Assembly (NCBI GenBank): GCA_963743305.1 | Contig: CAVUPH010000020.1 | Coordinates: 1 to 64,000, forward strand | Source: an uncultured delta proteobacterium | GTDB lineage: Bacteria; Desulfobacterota; RBG-13-43-22 | Reading direction: 5' to 3' | Length of the DNA stretch: 64,000 bases | Shown here: piece after piece, positions 53,612-61,492 of the stretch | Layout: each line of letters opens with the position of its first letter | How positions within the stretch are numbered: position 1 is the first letter of the stretch | Notes under the pieces: model-generated | Databases searched by the model: none | What the model saw: only the letters and a program-made list of their open reading frames with translations | Told to the model about the DNA's origin: nothing | Made by a program: the position numbers and the translations under genes

Positions 53612-54574
53612 TCAGCCTTTGAGGTCCGCTTCGACCATTTCGCGGATCATTTCCTCAAAGGATATCCGGGGCTGCCAGGCTAAAAGACGATGGGCCTTTT
53701 GAGCGTTGCCGATTAGATCCACCGGTTCCTTTTCCCGGAAAAAAACCGAGTCTACCTGCACATAGTCCTGGTAATCCTTTCCAATACAAGCAAAGGCAGC
53801 CGAGAGCAGGTCCCGAACCGTATGGGGGACCCCGGTAGCAATCACGTAGTCATCCGGACGATCCTGCTGCACCATACGCCACATGGCCTGGGTGTAATCC
53901 CGGGCATGGCCCCAATCCCGGCAGGCTTCGAGGTTGCCCATATGGAGCTTACCGGATCGGCCTTTTTTTAGCCCGGCGACGAAAGAGGAAACCTTGCGGG
54001 TAACAAACTGCGGACCCCGTCGCGGCGATTCGTGATTGTAGAGAATGCCGCTGGAAAGGTGCAGCCCATGATGGCGGCGGTAAAAGCGGCCAAGGTGGAA
54101 GCCCGCTAATTTGGACAGACCGTAAGCCGAATGCGGATGAAACGGAGTCTCTTCATCCTGAGGGGAATGGGGCGCATCGCCGAACATTTCGCTGCTGGCG
54201 GCAAAATAGATCCGGCAGTCGTTGTTGATTTGTCGGAGGCCCTCCAGTAGGTTGTGGGTAGTATAGAGGTTGGCATGCATCATTTCTCGCAGGTTATCAA
54301 AGCCGGGGCTGACATAGCTTTCCGAGGCCAGGTGATAACACTCCTGGGGTTGTATTTCCCTGAGGACGCGAAGGGTGCTGGTCAGGGAATTCAGTTCCAC
54401 GGCGTGGAGTTGGATCCGGCCCAGGTGGGCCTGGAGATGGGCCAGGCGCATCTCTGGATTTTCCAGGGTGGCCGGACGGACGATGCCGTGTACGGCATAG
54501 CCTTTATCCAAAAGGAGCTCCGTGAGGTAGGAGCCATCCTGTCCGGATATGCCGGTAATCAAAGCCTTGGGCAT
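53612..54574 (-). CDS. GDP-mannose 4,6-dehydratase-like (divergent paralog)
   Basis: [45 protein letters not shown]. Confidence 0.88.
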   Translation of the reverse strand: MPKALITGISGQDGSYLTELLLDKGYAVHGIVRPATLENPEMRLAHLQAHLGRIQLHAVELNSLTSTLRVLREIQPQECYHLASESYVSPGFDNLREMMHANLYTTHNLLEGLRQINNDCRIYFAASSEMFGDAPHSPQDEETPFHPHSAYGLSKLAGFHLGRFYRRHHGLHLSSGILYNHESPRRGPQFVTRKVSSFVAGLKKGRSGKLHMGNLEACRDWGHARDYTQAMWRMVQQDRPDDYVIATGVPHTVRDLLSAAFACIGKDYQDYVQVDSVFFREKEPVDLIGNAQKAHRLLAWQPRISFEEMIREMVEADLKG

Positions 54575-54671
54575 AAATGAATTCCCTTTCTTTCCCCTGC
54601 AGTAATCGGCCAAGAATCCGCTTAGATTAGCAACCTCCCCCGGGCTTGTCAACCCTGTCCGGAAAAGCGGT

Positions 54672-54700
54672 TTGACTTTTAGGGCCTCCCTGATTATGCT
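54672..54700 (+). promoter_or_regulatory. sigma70 promoter before GT4 gene
   Basis: TTGACT-N17-TATGCT, 8 nt before ATG. Confidence 0.55.
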
Positions 54701-54708
54701 GGCGAACG

Positions 54709-55830
54709 ATGGGCTCCCGGTCGCTTCATATTGGCGTCATCTACGGTGGAATCAGCGAGCAAAAAGTCGGCATGGACCATTACCTGCACCAGGTCTTGCT
54801 GACCATGAAAAGGCTGGCCCCGCACCATCGCTATACCCTGATCGATCATCGGCTGCAGGCCACCGCCTTTCGGGAGCAGTTCGGACAGGTGAACCTCCCT
54901 CTCCCTGCCGGACCCCTTTCCGTCAGCCGCTGGAACCTGCTGGAAGTCCCAAAAGTCTTGCCCCAATTTGACCTGGTTTTTTCTCCCGGCCTTTACGGTC
55001 CGGCGCGGATTCCTTCGGGCGTCAAAGGGGTCATGGTGGTTCATGATCTGGTCCGCTATCTCTTTCCAGGCTTCTTCGTCTTTAACCCGGTACAGAAGCT
55101 GCTGGATCGTTGGGCCTACCCGGTCATGCTCCGAAACTACCATCATTTGATCACCGTCTCCGAATCCACCCGTGACGACCTGATCCGCTTATTCAAGGTC
55201 CCGGTTGAAAGAATCACCGTCACTCATCACGGGGCTGACCCTCAATTTCGCCCGATCAGCGACCCCTCGGCTTTTGCCGGTCTTCTCCGGAAGTATGGGT
55301 TGGACCAGCCTTTTATCCTCTTCCTGGGAACCCTGGAACCCCGTAAAAACCTGATGACCTTGTTGCGGGCCTTTGCCCCGTTGAAAGAGCGGGTTCCTCA
55401 TTCCCTGGTCCTGGTGGGCCAGAAAGGCTGGAAATGGGAGGGAATCTTTGAGGCTATTAAGACCCTCGGCCTGGAAGAACGGGTCCGTTGGACCGGCTAT
55501 GTGTCCGATGAAGAACGGGTCCTTTTTTACAATGCCGCCGATTTTTTCGTCTATCCCAGTTGGTACGAGGGCTTCGGTATGCCCCTGCTGGAAGCGTTGC
55601 AGTCCGGCTGCCCGGTGATCGCCTCCCGGGTCAGTGCTCTGCCCGAAGTAGTGGGCCAGGCCGGGTTGCTGGTCGATCCCTCCAGCCCGGAAGAAATATC
55701 CCAGGCCATTCTCCGCCTGGTCGAGGAGGGGGGACTCAAAGAACGACTCCGAGAGGCCGGACTGGAGCGAGCGAGGCAATTTTCCTGGGAGGATAGCGCC
55801 CGAAAGACGCTGGAGGTCTTTGAAGGGTAA
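54709..55830 (+). CDS. GT4 glycosyltransferase (mannosyltransferase-like)
   Basis: GTLEPRKN, YPSWYEGFGMPLLEA. Confidence 0.92.
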   Translation: MGSRSLHIGVIYGGISEQKVGMDHYLHQVLLTMKRLAPHHRYTLIDHRLQATAFREQFGQVNLPLPAGPLSVSRWNLLEVPKVLPQFDLVFSPGLYGPARIPSGVKGVMVVHDLVRYLFPGFFVFNPVQKLLDRWAYPVMLRNYHHLITVSESTRDDLIRLFKVPVERITVTHHGADPQFRPISDPSAFAGLLRKYGLDQPFILFLGTLEPRKNLMTLLRAFAPLKERVPHSLVLVGQKGWKWEGIFEAIKTLGLEERVRWTGYVSDEERVLFYNAADFFVYPSWYEGFGMPLLEALQSGCPVIASRVSALPEVVGQAGLLVDPSSPEEISQAILRLVEEGGLKERLREAGLERARQFSWEDSARKTLEVFEG

Positions 55831-55876
55831 CCGGTAATGGATAAAGAAAATAATCTTGTAGTTGCAGAGGTCAAAC

Positions 55877-56047
55877 TCGAAACCGAAATCCGAAATCCGA
55901 AACAAATCCAAAGGTTCAAAATTGCAAATGACCACACCACTCCCTCCCTCGACGGGGGGGGGTGGGGGGATTGGGTGAATCACGAGTTCCCAGATCGCTA
56001 TCGAAGTAGAGGGTGTTTCGGATTTCGAATTTCGGATTTCGAATTTA
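55877..56047. repeat. Heptamer (CGAAATC)n inverted element with nested palindrome
   Basis: CGAAACCGAAATCCGAAATCCGAAACAAAT ... GTTTCGGATTTCGAATTTCGGATTTCGAATTT enclosing 55943-55982 element. Confidence 0.75.
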
Positions 56048-56059
56048 GTCAGGTGGACT

Positions 56060-57293
56060 TTGCGCGTTGCCTTCCTCGGAGATCGTTTGGGTCTGGCCAC
56101 CGGCGGCAATTTATATGTCGCCCGGGTGGCTCAGGAATTGGTGCGTCTGGGGGTGGAGGTATCCCTTATCACGCTGGTGCCGCCCCGGGATGTCGTCTGG
56201 GATTCGGGGCTACGGGTGATTTCTCGTTCGGTCGACTTCACTTTTGGCCGTTCACCCGATAAGGGGAGGCGGTTCTCCTTTCTCCAGGCCAAGTGGGCCG
56301 CCGTCGGGGAGTTACGTAAACTGGTGCGCGAACCCTACGATATCCTCTACTCCGTAGGGGGCCCCTCCAACATCGTCAACCATCTCTGTCATTCCGGCCC
56401 ATTCCGTCCCCGGGCATCGGTAGCCGCCGTCTTTCACCTCTTCCGGCAGGCTCCTTGGTCCCGGTTTCTTTTTTCGGCCGATACCTATCGCAAGCCTTTT
56501 CAAACCATATATCATTCCTGGGGTGACCACTTGGCCAAAAAGTTCACCGTGGTCACCGTTTCCCAATACTGGCGGGATCGTCTCATCCGCCGCGGTTTTC
56601 AGCCGGATCGGGTCCGGGTCATTCCCGTAGGCGCGGAAACCGCGGATTGGCCTCGCCTCGACCCGGAGGAGGCCAAGCAGAAGCTGGGCCTGGCCGGCCG
56701 GCTGGTGGTCTACACCAGCCCCCTGCGGCTGAACAAAGGCATCCTCCAGGTCCTCCAGGCCGTCAGAAACTTAAAGGACCGTTTTCCGCAGCTTTTGGTC
56801 ATCTCCACCGGGGTAACCGACCGACAGACTCAGGAGCAGGTCCGTCTTTTCTTGATCGAAAACCGTTTAGATGATTTTTTTCGCTATGACGGCGTGGTAC
56901 CCCGGGACGAGGTCCCCTGGTATCACTATGCGGCGGATATCACGGTCCTGGCCTCCCAGGAGGAAGAAGGCTGGGGCATTTTCCTGCTGGAGGGAATGCT
57001 CTCCGGTAAGCCGGTGGTCTGCACCCCTCTGGGGGCCATGCCGGAACTGGTTGGGGACCGAGGGGTCGTGCTGGAAGGAAATACGGTCGAAGATTTGACC
57101 CAAGCCGTCGATCGACTTCTGGCTTCTCCCGAACGGAGGAAACAATTAGGACTGGCCGGCCAGGGACAAGCATTGAAATTTTCTTACCAGATCGGCCGCT
57201 AAGGCCCATCTGATATTATTTGAGGAGTTACTCAGGGGTTCGCCAAAAGCCCATCCCCAGGCCGCGGTCGAGATTAAGCCCCGGCCCCGCTGA
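56060..57293 (+). CDS. GT4 glycosyltransferase (frameshift near 57190)
   Basis: KGI, EEGWGIFLLEGM..GKPVV; C-terminus continues in shifted frame. Confidence 0.85.
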
Positions 57294-57325
57294 TAACCGT
57301 TTTCAGACTTTTTACGCGCGTATCA

Positions 57326-58195
57326 TTAAAGGGCAGGTGATTTTCGCCAAGCCTTTTGGATTTGTTTGAATAGAGGTAGGATATTCATTCGGTTACGTCG
57401 CCCGTAATTCCACCAGATCCTTTTCTGCCGGTAGAGGAGGAAGGGCCAGTAGCCCCAAGAGATATACTTGAAGAAGAAATACCAGTCATTGAAGATGCAG
57501 CTTTCCAGGTAGGCATTCGGTAAAGGGTTGCGGCTGCCCCCCTGTTTGACCATGACATGAAAGACCGAGGCCCGGGGTTCGTATTGAATCCGATGGCCTT
57601 TGCGGCGGATTTGCAGGGCGTAATCCACTTCCTCCCACAAGAAATTTCCCCAATAGTTCAAATCGAAATCCCCGACCTCCTGGAGGACATTTTTGCGGAT
57701 GGACATATTGCATCCGTACAGGGTGGGCAGCTCACAGCGCTGGTTGGTGGTGAAGTTCCGGAGATAAGCCCCGGTGCGGGTCAGGCAGGCCGCCCAGGGT
57801 TCGTTGTTTTCCTCGGCCCCTTCGTACATGATCCGGCCGTTCACGGCGCCGATGGAAGGATCTTCATAATTTTCCAGATGATGCCGGATCAGGTCGGGCT
57901 GAAAAAGGACGTCGTCATCCAGGAAAAGTACGATTTCGCCTTGGGTCTCGCGGATGGCGAGATTACGAGCGGCCGTAGTGGAAGGAGGCGATAGGGTCAG
58001 ATGCCGAATGCCCTGACCCTCTCCTTGGAGATAGGCCATTACTTTGGGGAAGGATCGCGTGCTTTGGTCCACCACCAGAATTTCCAAGGGCCGGACCGTC
58101 TGGTCCTTCAACAGACGAAGGACATGGAGCAGGGACTCCTCCCGGTTGAGGGTGCAGATGACGACGGAAACGGAGATGGAGGCTTGGTTGTTCAT
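57326..58195 (-). CDS. GT2 glycosyltransferase
   Basis: SVVICTLNR, VVDQS, ARN, FLDDD, GCNMS. Confidence 0.9.
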   Translation of the reverse strand: MNNQASISVSVVICTLNREESLLHVLRLLKDQTVRPLEILVVDQSTRSFPKVMAYLQGEGQGIRHLTLSPPSTTAARNLAIRETQGEIVLFLDDDVLFQPDLIRHHLENYEDPSIGAVNGRIMYEGAEENNEPWAACLTRTGAYLRNFTTNQRCELPTLYGCNMSIRKNVLQEVGDFDLNYWGNFLWEEVDYALQIRRKGHRIQYEPRASVFHVMVKQGGSRNPLPNAYLESCIFNDWYFFFKYISWGYWPFLLYRQKRIWWNYGRRNRMNILPLFKQIQKAWRKSPAL

Positions 58196-58341
58196 CGCTT
58201 GGTTATACCAAATACGATAAATAAAACGAATATCGAATATCGAACACTGAATTCCGATGATGACGTCCCAAGGGAAAGGCGAGCCCGCGTGCCGCCCTGG
58301 TTAGCGATATCGAACAAGGAATAATGAATGCATAAAGTGGC

Positions 58342-59613
58342 TCACTTCTTAATTCGAACTTCCGTCGTTCGATATTCTTCATTCGTATTTCCCCTGGTTG
58401 TAATCAGTTCCAGAAAAAGGGTCTCCATCTTTTCCGCCACTTTCCCGACCGTAAATCGTTCCCGGACCTTGGCCCTCCCGGCCTCGCCCATTCGCCGGCG
58501 TTGATCGGGATCTTTCAACAGCTTGAGCATGGCCTGGGCCAGGGCCGACGGATCGTCGAAGGGCACCAGATACCCATCTTCCCCAGCTTCCACCAGGGCG
58601 GCCACGGCCGGAATATTCGCTCCGATCACCGGCTTTTTTTGGGCCCAGGCCTCCAGGAAAACCACCCCGAAGCTCTCCACCGCTGAAGGCAGGGCCAGAA
58701 GGTCGGCGGCTGCCAGGAGGTCGATCTTTTCCTTCTCCGGGAAATTATCCAGAGATCGAAGTCGAGCGTCACGTCCCACCGGCAGCCGGTCCAGCAGGTC
58801 CCTAAAATAGGGACTTGTTTGACCGGCTAAAAGGAGAACCGCCCGCGGGGTTTCTTCCCAGACCCGCGGCATAGCCGAAAGCAGGGTTTCGATCCCCTTC
58901 CCCTCCACCTTCCGTCCTAGAAAAACGATCAATGGTTCGTCGGTCCAGCCCTGGCGGCGGCGGAAGGCCTGACCGTCACCGGGGATCAAGGCCTCTTCGG
59001 AGAGACCCTGTCCAAAAACTTGGATTCTCGAGGGCTCGATCCCCTGGGAAATCAGGAATTTTTTTTCCGGTTCCGTATTGGTCAGAACGGCCGAGGCCTG
59101 GGGAAAGATCCATTTCAGAATCTTCAGCAGGGATTCGTTCATCTGGGCTTCGTGAATATGGGGCTGTATTACCCAGGGGCAGCCTAAATAGCTGGCCACC
59201 TGCCAGGCATAGTAGGGGGTGGCAGTGGGAAAGGGAACGGCATAGAGGATATCCGGGTTCAGCTTTCGCGCCTTCGGGATCATTTGGGGAAGGTGGGGCA
59301 CCTGGATCCTGTACCAGAGCCTATCCCCGCCCGGCAATCGACTTCGCAAGGAGAGGGCTCCCAGTTTGGCCAAAAGGAGGCGCTGAAAAGGGCGGAGACA
59401 AACGCGGATAATCCGGATCCCTTCCCAGGTTTCTTCTTCCGGGAGGGAGGGATGAATTTGGGGACGCCGAAAATCTTCCAAGCCCAGTTGATTGGAAGTG
59501 AGCACGGTGACCCGATGACCCCTTTTCACCAACTCCCGCGAAAGCTCGAGCAGGGCCATCTCTGTCCCGCCATGGGCCGGATGGAAGAGATGGGTCAAGT
59601 TAAGGATGTGCAT
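58342..59613 (-). CDS. GT4 glycosyltransferase
   Basis: GGTE, GRKVEGKG, PSAVESFGVVFLEAW. Confidence 0.92.
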   Translation of the reverse strand: MHILNLTHLFHPAHGGTEMALLELSRELVKRGHRVTVLTSNQLGLEDFRRPQIHPSLPEEETWEGIRIIRVCLRPFQRLLLAKLGALSLRSRLPGGDRLWYRIQVPHLPQMIPKARKLNPDILYAVPFPTATPYYAWQVASYLGCPWVIQPHIHEAQMNESLLKILKWIFPQASAVLTNTEPEKKFLISQGIEPSRIQVFGQGLSEEALIPGDGQAFRRRQGWTDEPLIVFLGRKVEGKGIETLLSAMPRVWEETPRAVLLLAGQTSPYFRDLLDRLPVGRDARLRSLDNFPEKEKIDLLAAADLLALPSAVESFGVVFLEAWAQKKPVIGANIPAVAALVEAGEDGYLVPFDDPSALAQAMLKLLKDPDQRRRMGEAGRAKVRERFTVGKVAEKMETLFLELITTRGNTNEEYRTTEVRIKK

Positions 59614-60303
59614 TTATTTTGCTGGAGGGAATAGGGCGCTGATCCGTATCAGGACTTCCGGTTTTTGGGGGTGATCGGTCAAACACTTGATGACGCCGGA
59701 ATAAGACCCCTCCCGCTGAAGATTGGTGATCTTGAGTCGGTAATGACTGCCCGGGACGATGGTTTCCAATTGGGCGCCGATTTTTTCTTTTAAATTATTT
59801 TCAATTTTTAACACCTTAAAATCCTGACCGGTCGCCAGCAGGTCGATGGTTTTTTTATCAGCGTCTTGGGCGGCCGGAGAGAATTGAACGGAGGGACCCG
59901 GACGCAGCTCGATAAACGGTCGGACTTTGCCTTGAAGCACGATTTGGAAGGAAGGTTGCCGGAGGTCATTGCTGAAAATGGTGGCCTCCTTCCAGACCTT
60001 CCCTTGAAACCCCCTGAGATTGACGTTTAACGAAACTTTTCCCTCGCCCCCCGGCGGGATGACCCGGTCAAACCGGGTCACGGCGCAGCCTCAGCCGGGG
60101 CGGACGTCTTTAATTTGCAGGGCCTCGGCGCCGATATTCAATATTTTAAAATCATGACTGACGGTTTCGCCTTCACCCAATTCCCCAAAATCGAAACGGG
60201 GTTCGGGAACCTGCATTTGAACGTTGCCGGCCCAAACAATCCCGGCCCAAACCCAAAGCAGGAGCAGAACCAACCCGGCGGGCCATCTTTTTTGAATGTT
60301 CAC
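59614..60303 (-). CDS. Secreted DUF1573 (Ig-like) protein, probable selenoprotein (U71 in U-G-C)
   Basis: ORFs 60091..60303 and 59614..60081 are in the same frame, joined by TGA GGC TGC GCC; FDFG...HDF..N.G...L.I..V.PG[U]GC...IPPG matches DUF1573. Confidence 0.8.
60059..60081 (-). promoter_or_regulatory. Bacterial SECIS-like hairpin
   Basis: GUGACCCGGU-UUG-ACCGGGUCAU stem-loop starting 9 nt after the in-frame UGA. Confidence 0.7.
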
Positions 60304-60349
60304 GCTAGTGTGCCTCGTTATTCGTTGCAGGTTAAAAATACCGACTTGA

Positions 60350-61492
60350 TTAATACCCCCGCTGGCTGACTTTTTCCAGATCGGCCCGGGCCATCATCCG
60401 GGCCAAATGGTCGAATTTTACCTTGGCCTCCCAGCCCAGTTTATCCTTGGCTTTGGCCGGATCGCCAATCAGAATATCCACTTCAGTAGGGCGATAATAG
60501 ACCGGATCAATCCGCAACAGGACCGAACCAACCTCCGGCGGTTGGGCCTGTTCCAAGGGGATCGCCGGTTCCCGATGCCCGTTGGGACCGTTCGGCCGGC
60601 TGTCCCGTTCGGCCTCCAGGAACACCGAACTAATTCCCGCCAGGATCCCCACTTCGTCGACCCCTGAGCCCCGCCATTCAATCTCCAGGCCGACGGTCCG
60701 GAAGGCCGCCTCGACGAACTCCCGGACCGAATGGGTTTCTCCGGTGGCAATGACAAAGTCATCGGGCTGGTCCTGCTGAAGCATCCGCCACATGGCTTCC
60801 ACATATTCCGGGGCGTACCCCCAGTCCCGCTTGGCTGCCAGGTTGCCTAAGGTCATCTCCTTCTGGACACCCAACCGGATCCGGGCCGCGGCTCGAGTGA
60901 TCTTACGGGTCACGAAGGTTTCCCCCCGGCGAGGGGATTCATGGTTGAAGAGGATGCCATTACAGGCATAAAGGTTATAAGCCTCCCGGTAGTTGACCAC
61001 AATCCAGAAGCCATAAATCTTGGCGACTCCATAAGGGGAGCGGGGATAGAATGGAGTGGATTCGTTCTGGGGGATTTCCCGGACCTTCCCGTAGAGTTCG
61101 CTGGTGGAGGCCTGGTAAAATCGGGTCTTGATGCCCGTGTTCTTGATGGCATCCAGAAAACGGAGTGTTCCGATGGCGTCCACCTCGGCCGTGTACTCCG
61201 GGACCTCAAAAGAAACCCGGACATGGCTTTGGGCGGCCAGGTTATAAATCTCATCGGGTTGGACTCGTTCCAGTATCCGGTTCAGGTTGCTGGAATCGGT
61301 CAGGTCCCCGTAATGGGTGATAAAGGTTTTGTCGAAGATACCGGCATCACCGTACAGATGGTCGATGCGGGCGGTGTTGAAGGAACTGCTGCGGCGCAGG
61401 ATGCCATGAACTTCGTAGCCTTTTTCCAGTAATAGCTCGGTTAAGTAGGATCCGTCCTGCCCGGTGACCCCGGTAATTAAAGCGCGTTTCAT
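60350..61492 (-). CDS. gmd: GDP-mannose 4,6-dehydratase
   Basis: [58 protein letters not shown]. Confidence 0.96.

Follow-up and report, generated by a model that had tools for sequence, protein, structure and literature searches.

The 64,000-nucleotide (nt) stretch analysed here, from contig CAVUPH010000020.1 of an uncultured delta proteobacterium (hereafter the window), carries on its minus strand a gene that a plain gene list divides into two open reading frames (ORFs). The sequence evidence makes it very probable that the two ORFs are one gene and that its product is a selenoprotein, in which a UGA codon is read as selenocysteine (Sec, U). The gene is a member of the published OS_HP2/DUF1573 selenoprotein family, with the motif U-G-C, and is not novel. 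An earlier note on this DNA, made from the letters alone, had proposed a 229-residue selenoprotein with an immunoglobulin (Ig) fold, and this proposal is supported by a domain that runs across the UGA, by the pairing of TGA with cysteine among homologues, by a downstream hairpin and by Sec genes in the genome. Family, motif and Sec insertion sequence (SECIS) have all been published, and nothing basic changes; the value is mainly one of annotation, in that 155-residue fragments in many assemblies become one Sec-containing protein, and a group of sediment and soil bacteria with wide Sec use gains one selenoprotein more. Positions without a prefix follow the numbering of the whole window. G000 denotes the organism's own assembly, other G numbers denote the genomes of relatives, and L numbers denote extracted loci.

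One reading frame interrupted by a single UGA codon

On the minus strand a frame opens at GTG 60303 and closes at TAA 59614-59616, and its sole interruption is the TGA at 60091-60093. When this TGA is translated as U the frame yields 229 residues with a single U, at residue 71, in the context KDVRPG-U-G-C-AVTRFDRVIPPGG. The plain ORF list reports the two halves separately, at 60091..60303 (70 amino acids, aa) and 59614..60081 (155 aa), both in the same minus-strand frame; the translation agrees with the earlier claim that they form one frame split only by this TGA. The gene and its key codons are:

59614..60303, minus strand: predicted selenoprotein coding sequence, 229 residues plus TAA (open frame with TGA as U; dN/dS; continuous AlphaFold2, AF2, model)
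60301..60303, minus strand: GTG start codon, with GAGG 9 nt upstream, aligning with the first residue (M) of the same-genus orthologues L024-L026
60091..60093, minus strand: TGA, predicted Sec codon, residue 71 (column TGA in 25 of 30 homologous loci, Cys in 5)
60085..60087, minus strand: TGC, Cys73, second residue of the U-G-C motif (columns 71 and 73 at least 90% conserved in a 29-sequence alignment)

Ratios of nonsynonymous to synonymous substitution rates (dN/dS) against three same-genus orthologues were 0.16-0.36 upstream of the TGA and 0.15-0.41 downstream of it; by this sequence measure both gene halves are under purifying selection. TGA terminates 635 of the 1773 frames of at least 350 codons in the genome and is thus an ordinary stop, so there is no global reassignment of the code. 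With regard to a possible base error for TGC or TGT, one short public contig over 59961-60148 departs from the window sequence at 60031, 60033 and 60106 and has the same TGA; it may derive from the window's source sample and hence adds little weight. The matching public contigs are short and span only portions of the stretch, and no RNA run was listed for it.

The GTG that opens the second ORF (60079-60081) coincides with the first three bases of the hairpin stem described below, as the earlier note had observed. The same note held that this GTG has no ribosome-binding site, and that part did not stand, since the UGA and the next GG together spell GAGG, 7 nt upstream of the GTG. This GAGG may be mistaken by gene callers for a Shine-Dalgarno site, and it is perhaps because of it that they restart at GTG 60081. 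In a large protein collection the matches above 70% identity are 155-aa fragments; 22 of the 43 matches are exactly 155 aa long, one of them the window's own, and the few full-length matches are Cys forms, for example P0028 and P0041 (SCGCT). The view that the gene is hidden, being split by standard callers, is accordingly borne out for generic callers but goes too far as regards curated annotation, where an NCBIfam model for the family exists.

The UGA column carries TGA or cysteine codons in homologues

The genomes of 61 relatives were searched with the protein; 33 matched, and frames were read at 30 loci whose protein identity to the window ranges from 93% down to 26%. At the aligned column the relatives keep TGA, not TAA or TAG, in 25 of the 30 loci, including all 21 loci from the window's own bacterial family (f1). 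The remaining five have cysteine, as C-G-C in four and C-A-C in one. The motif reads xPG-U-G-C in f1 and KPG-U-G-C, KGG-U-G-C, KVG-U-G-C or KAS-U-G-C in farther loci. In the 29-sequence alignment the conserved columns are N56, G58, C71, C73, P84, G85, N112 and D113.

The wider sample comprised 201 genomes of the same phylum, 76 of which were matched by the family model NF041425 (E ≤1e-10), and an in-frame TGA was present in 43 of 101 matches, among the matches listed. Where the TGA position was read, in 20 fetched TGA matches, 19 gave U-G-C and one (L060) was recognised by a looser pattern. These 19 Sec forms and a set of 18 Cys forms, all drawn from families of the phylum other than f1, follow the same Sec/Cys pattern. 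The expectation that DUF1573 homologues carry C-G-C at this position was thus borne out, with Cys forms reading CGC or CAC, and so was the pairing of Cys with TGA, cysteine being found in five of five non-TGA loci and in the 18 further Cys forms.

Three orthologues, L039, L048 and L052 (from G013, G011 and G020), keep the U-G-C motif and the hairpin in frames of 145, 113 and 108 aa that end after the first domain; in L039 and L052 they are still followed by a gene for a family 4 glycosyltransferase (GT4). Either truncation variants or breaks in the assembly may account for the three short frames.

A hairpin lies just downstream of the UGA

The feature that would direct Sec insertion is:

60059..60081, minus strand: SECIS-like hairpin, 10-bp stem and UUG loop, starting 9 nt after the UGA (ViennaRNA)

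The UGA is followed by 9 nt (GGCUGCGCC) and then by GUGACCCGGU-UUG-ACCGGGUCAU at 60081..60059. As the earlier note had described, this segment forms a hairpin; its stem has 10 bp with a G-U closing pair, its loop has 3 nt, and it is present in both the minimum free energy (MFE) and the centroid structures computed with ViennaRNA. A 71-nt stretch folds with -38.6 kcal/mol (z = -2.19), a value equalled by 6 of 200 shuffles. Because the hairpin overlaps the conserved peptide FDR-x-IPPGG, its stability was also compared with that of synonymous recodings. Only 0.2% of 500 such recodings of the 42 nt after the UGA were as stable as the real window sequence, and for the three same-genus orthologues the corresponding fraction was 1.0-1.4%.

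Across 21 distinct f1 sequences, 85.7% of the cells in the outer 7-bp part of the stem are paired. The inner 3 bp, with 47.6% of cells paired, are confined to the window's genus and its nearest kin. Since the hairpins of distant Sec forms are shifted by a few nt, we adopted measures that are free of register. When the 45 nt after the codon were folded for the same two sets from other families (19 Sec and 18 Cys forms), the composition-normalised folding z was -0.44 for Sec and +0.37 for Cys forms (one-sided Mann-Whitney p = 0.004). A second measure, chosen post hoc, was the longest uninterrupted stem with a loop of 3-9 nt and a start 8-18 nt past the codon. By this post hoc measure 34 of the 42 distinct Sec forms, against 2 of the 25 Cys forms, have a stem of at least 6 bp; with family f1 left out the counts are 17 of 25 Sec and 2 of 25 Cys forms. 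The p-values of these Sec/Cys comparisons overstate the significance because the sequences are related, and the stem counts, too, contain many related sequences.

The stem sequences vary by lineage (CUGUCUC, UUGCCUC, CACGGUU, GGUGGUCCG, CCUUGGU, CUCUGUC, UGCGCU and others), as would be expected if it is the structure rather than the sequence that is selected along with the TGA.

Domain architecture and family membership

For profile searches the read-through protein was given C in place of U. The Pfam domain DUF1573 (PF07610) matches residues 32-127, across the UGA, with E 1.5e-18 and 67 bits (cut-off 26.1); a HYDIN/VesB-like Ig domain is matched as well. The top NCBIfam match is NF041425, 'OS_HP2 family (seleno)protein', with 101.6 bits against a cut-off of 100. 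An AF2 model built from the 29-sequence alignment has a mean predicted local distance difference test score of 90.5 and comprises a helix at residues 7-23 and beta-sandwiches at about 30-128 and 131-224. In this model residues 70-73 (G-U-G-C) form the turn that joins strands 62-69 and 74-78. The protein is divided as follows:

60229..60303, minus strand: signal-peptide-like segment, residues 1-25 (in translation a basic n-region, a hydrophobic core and VWA-G; AF2 helix 7-23)
59923..60210, minus strand: first Ig-like domain (DUF1573/OS_HP2), residues 32-127, spanning the UGA (PF07610, NF041425)
59632..59913, minus strand: second Ig-like beta-sandwich, residues about 131-224, with a T-D-H-P-x-K-P-E stretch (AF2 strands E131-E224, alignment consensus, Foldseek)

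The N-terminal segment looks from its sequence to be a signal peptide, and the protein would be exported. Foldseek against the PDB returned generic tandem Ig and ASH-like folds (ciliary central-pair proteins, titin, CEP192 SPD-2 and 2qsv) and gave no lead to function, and no PDB entry was matched by sequence at E up to 1.

The genome also encodes a paralogue at C6:140267-140698 (minus strand; locus L058:368-799), a single-domain DUF1573 protein of 144 aa (43.7 bits). An in-frame TGA stands at the same domain column in the motif T-U-S-M, which lacks a second Cys, and the UGA is followed by a hairpin; the paralogue's NF041425 score of 53.9 bits lies under the cut-off. TGA-containing frames of about 148 aa that resemble this paralogue are found in many relatives.

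Selenocysteine machinery and the proposed route of insertion

The following Sec genes were found in the assembly:

C6:26765-26857: tRNA-Sec (selC), 75.1 bits (gathering score 47); called by ARAGORN as tRNA-SeC (tca)
C4:27111-28997: SelB, full length including the C-terminal mRNA-binding part, 363.5 bits, hidden Markov model (HMM) positions 1-580 of 581
C26:75850-76774, minus strand: SelD, 210 and 170 bits, with a Sec TGA of its own (AAG-U-ASKLG), in two frames (loci L017 and L018)

In the mechanism that we propose, the UGA at 60091-60093 would be recoded by the bacterial Sec pathway: Sec-tRNA(Sec), with anticodon UCA, would be delivered by SelB, which the hairpin beginning 9 nt past the UGA would recruit. 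At the UGA generic callers would stop, and they would restart at the GTG in the hairpin base, aided by the accidental GAGG. The product would be exported by way of its N-terminal signal peptide, and in f1 its gene would be co-transcribed with those for GT4 and a family 2 glycosyltransferase (GT2).

A second tRNA-SelB pair was observed at C14:99573-100799 (loci L002 and L010). It consists of a 92-nt tRNA-Cys (GCA) that reaches 50.8 bits with the tRNA-Sec model and, directly downstream, a second SelB-like ORF of 465 aa (TIGR00475, 261.7 bits, main match HMM 1-342); on the other side of the tRNA lies a CCG-rich ORF resembling a heterodisulfide-reductase relative. The pair fits the selC*/selB* arrangement that a published account (PMC5389517) describes for Syntrophobacterales and Desulfobacterales, where it suggests that the tRNA is a tRNA-Sec mimic.

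Observations that weigh against selenocysteine insertion

A number of results count against the reading of this gene as a selenoprotein of the OS_HP2 family, and they concern the hairpin, the family score and the Sec genes. With regard to the hairpin, the recoding test gave a significant result only for the window's genus and its closest kin, and not for most of the remoter f1 orthologues (fractions of 0.1-0.7). In-register covariation in a 25-sequence alignment was likewise not significant (0.167 against a shuffled value of 0.155, reached by 123 of 500 shuffles), so that of the earlier suggestion that relatives keep a covarying hairpin, the hairpin itself stands, with lineage-specific sequence, but significant in-register covariation does not. 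The raw MFE of the Sec and Cys forms from other families did not differ significantly (-14.3 against -12.7 kcal/mol, p = 0.12), and an Rfam scan of 59950-60150 with E up to 10 returned chance-level matches only and no SECIS family.

The family score is close to its threshold. When the genome was searched with NF041425 reading through the stop, the gene (C20:59923-60210) scored a borderline 94 bits; taken with the 101.6 bits of the protein search, membership by score is borderline yet positive.

The remaining observations concern the Sec genes, to which the earlier note had pointed as a check: tRNA-Sec, SelB and SelD are present, but selA was not found by TIGR00474 or PF03841 in the assembly, which is 90.12% complete. 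The selD frame moreover shifts by one base near C26:76382-76407 (…HEAG / ALLVGGHSIDD…), which is either an assembly indel or real damage. All five relatives tested have selA, three of them belonging to the same genus. G000 gives no blastn match to the selA locus of the relative G002 (selA with 1.5 kb of flank on either side), and about 9 kb from selA the G002 sequence is 91.6% identical to the terminal 586 bases of G000 contig C38 (18951-19536). Because this syntenic match stops at the end of the contig, we read the absence of selA as probably an assembly gap.

Proposed function and alternative explanations

CxC and CGC redox motifs mimic the active sites of protein disulfide isomerase. In the U-G-C motif, likewise, two chalcogen residues stand one glycine apart in a tight turn, and it is this resemblance that motivates a redox reading. 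We tentatively propose that Sec71-Gly-Cys73 could form a reversible selenenylsulfide and so act as a periplasmic redox centre of the thiol/disulfide type, a role that we regard as possible and somewhat short of probable. A full-text search on DUF1573 in one literature collection turned up, in the passages that it covers, no paper assigning a function.

A somewhat unlikely alternative is that the protein is a selenoprotein whose U-x-C motif binds a soft metal such as Cu(I), Hg or Zn, as beta-sandwich metallochaperones of the periplasm do, with no selenenylsulfide cycling. In the model the U-G-C motif lies in an exposed turn of the Ig-like sandwich, as would suit such a site, and the paralogue on C6, with its T-U-S-M motif, has Sec without a second Cys, so Sec does not always need a resolving Cys. 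Families listed beside OS_HP2 in a table of the 2008 ocean-sampling selenoproteome include the metal-related MerP, mercuric transport protein and cation ATPase (PMC2398784). However, no metal-resistance or metal-transport genes adjoin any locus examined, and columns 71 and 73 are both at least 90% conserved in the main family, a pattern that equally fits a redox pair.

It is very unlikely that the UGA is wholly or partly read as Cys, for instance when selenium is scarce, by the tRNA-Sec-like tRNA-Cys (selC*) with the second SelB. The adjoining pair on C14 and the published selC*/selB* arrangement (PMC5389517) speak for such decoding, but the anticodon of the C14 tRNA is GCA, not UCA, the main match of the second SelB covers only HMM 1-342, and the genome has a canonical tRNA-Sec(UCA) with a full-length SelB. 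Selenium supply deciding, through this pair, whether the site is read as Sec or as Cys is a smaller possibility.

More improbable still is that the locus makes two products, a 70-residue exported peptide ending at the UGA and a 155-residue protein started at GTG 60081 by means of the GAGG. The GAGG does stand 7 nt upstream of this GTG, and the 155-aa form is called as a protein in many public assemblies. However, the GAGG is forced by the codons for U-G, DUF1573 (32-127) would be severed at residue 71, the restart form would, according to the model, be without the signal peptide and three sandwich strands, and the Cys-form homologues are single uninterrupted proteins.

The reading of the TGA as a base error of the assembly or a nonsense mutation, in a gene undergoing decay, for which frame breaks elsewhere in the assembly (such as that in selD) and the other gene breaks noted in the window might be cited, is effectively refuted by the same TGA in 24 other genomes (26-93% protein identity) and by purifying selection on the downstream part, and the one public contig over the site keeps the TGA.

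Genomic neighbourhood

The selenoprotein gene lies in a glycan-synthesis cluster at 53612-61492, which holds two genes of the GDP-mannose-dehydratase family, three GT4 genes and one GT2 gene. Its members include:

60350..61492, minus strand: GDP-mannose 4,6-dehydratase (gmd), upstream of the selenoprotein gene
58342..59613, minus strand: GT4 glycosyltransferase, downstream, its ATG directly abutting the selenoprotein TAA
57326-58195, minus strand: GT2 glycosyltransferase
53612-54652, minus strand: second dehydratase-family gene (GDP-mannose-dehydratase family)

The two further GT4 genes are on the opposite strand. The minus-strand ORFs at 54694-55146 and 55189-56109 are probably not genes, since they have no Pfam match and overlap the plus-strand GT4 genes.

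Within f1, a GT4 homologue (56-95% identity) follows the selenoprotein gene in 17 of 18 relatives' loci, the sole locus without one being L048, which is just 1887 bases long; a GT2 fragment follows wherever the locus is long enough. The gmd gene is upstream in only four relatives' loci (L024-L027). At 10 distant homologue loci, with 20 flanking frames, no partner gene recurs: the flanks encode a thiolase, a KaiC/RadA-like ATPase, a sigma-54 activator, FAD_binding_2 (twice), a HAD hydrolase (twice), PAS, RNase H, T2SSE, FUR, FMN reductase, UbiD, transglutaminase and QueH, and three frames could be assigned to no family. The link to glycosyltransferases is thus confined to f1.

One could imagine that in f1 the U-G-C selenoprotein serves in the periplasm as the dedicated partner of a pathway for cell-surface glycans (operon OS_HP2-GT4-GT2), a role that we consider unlikely; its tasks might include the reduction or carriage of an intermediate, or surveillance of the export machinery's redox state. 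If this were true, the operon would be the first functional context for DUF1573 selenoproteins. The conserved glycosyltransferase link in f1 and the paralogue with Sec but no second Cys are two modest additions to what is in print, and both the f1 glycosyltransferase operon and the Cys-less paralogue are leads to the function of DUF1573 selenoproteins.

Comparison with known systems

OS_HP2 appears among the new selenoprotein families of Olavius symbionts in Table 2 of Zhang and Gladyshev (2007; PMC1976440), where all the new families are described as having Sec/Cys pairs and stem-loops after the TGA. A row of the 2008 ocean-sampling table reads 'OS_HP2 pfam07610 UxC' (Zhang and Gladyshev; PMC2398784), and entries in reviews of 2022 and 2026 give a 'DUF1573 domain-containing protein' with the motif UGC (PMC9312934, PMC13188914). 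Like OS_HP2, the window's protein has a PF07610 domain, U-G-C where homologues have C-G-C, a stem-loop just past the UGA and a score over the cut-off, and it is found in the former deltaproteobacteria (one database match is labelled Thermodesulfobacteriota). With the founding members compared by their published description, nothing essential differs. The window's ortholog group has a second Ig-like domain with the T-D-H-P-x-K-P-E stretch and, within f1, a fixed place ahead of the GT4 and GT2 genes. Cys-form DUF1573 proteins share the domain and the conserved columns but have Cys for Sec, and a downstream hairpin is found in only 2 of 25.

The structurally closest bacterial PDB entry is 2qsv from P. 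gingivalis (Foldseek E 3.6e-9), with a tandem Ig-like fold; template modelling (TM) scores are low (0.35), and only the fold class is held in common.

Bacterial SECIS elements are described in general terms as stem-loops in the coding sequence right after the UGA (PMC1976440). The hairpin of the window resembles the E. coli-type SECIS (fdhF/fdnG, SelB-bound) in being a stem-loop within the coding sequence right 3' of the UGA, and its apical loop has G and U, as in that type. The spacing to the minimal element in the E. coli SECIS is about 11 nt. The window hairpin differs from the E. coli element in having another sequence, a 3-nt loop and no bulged U that could be seen.

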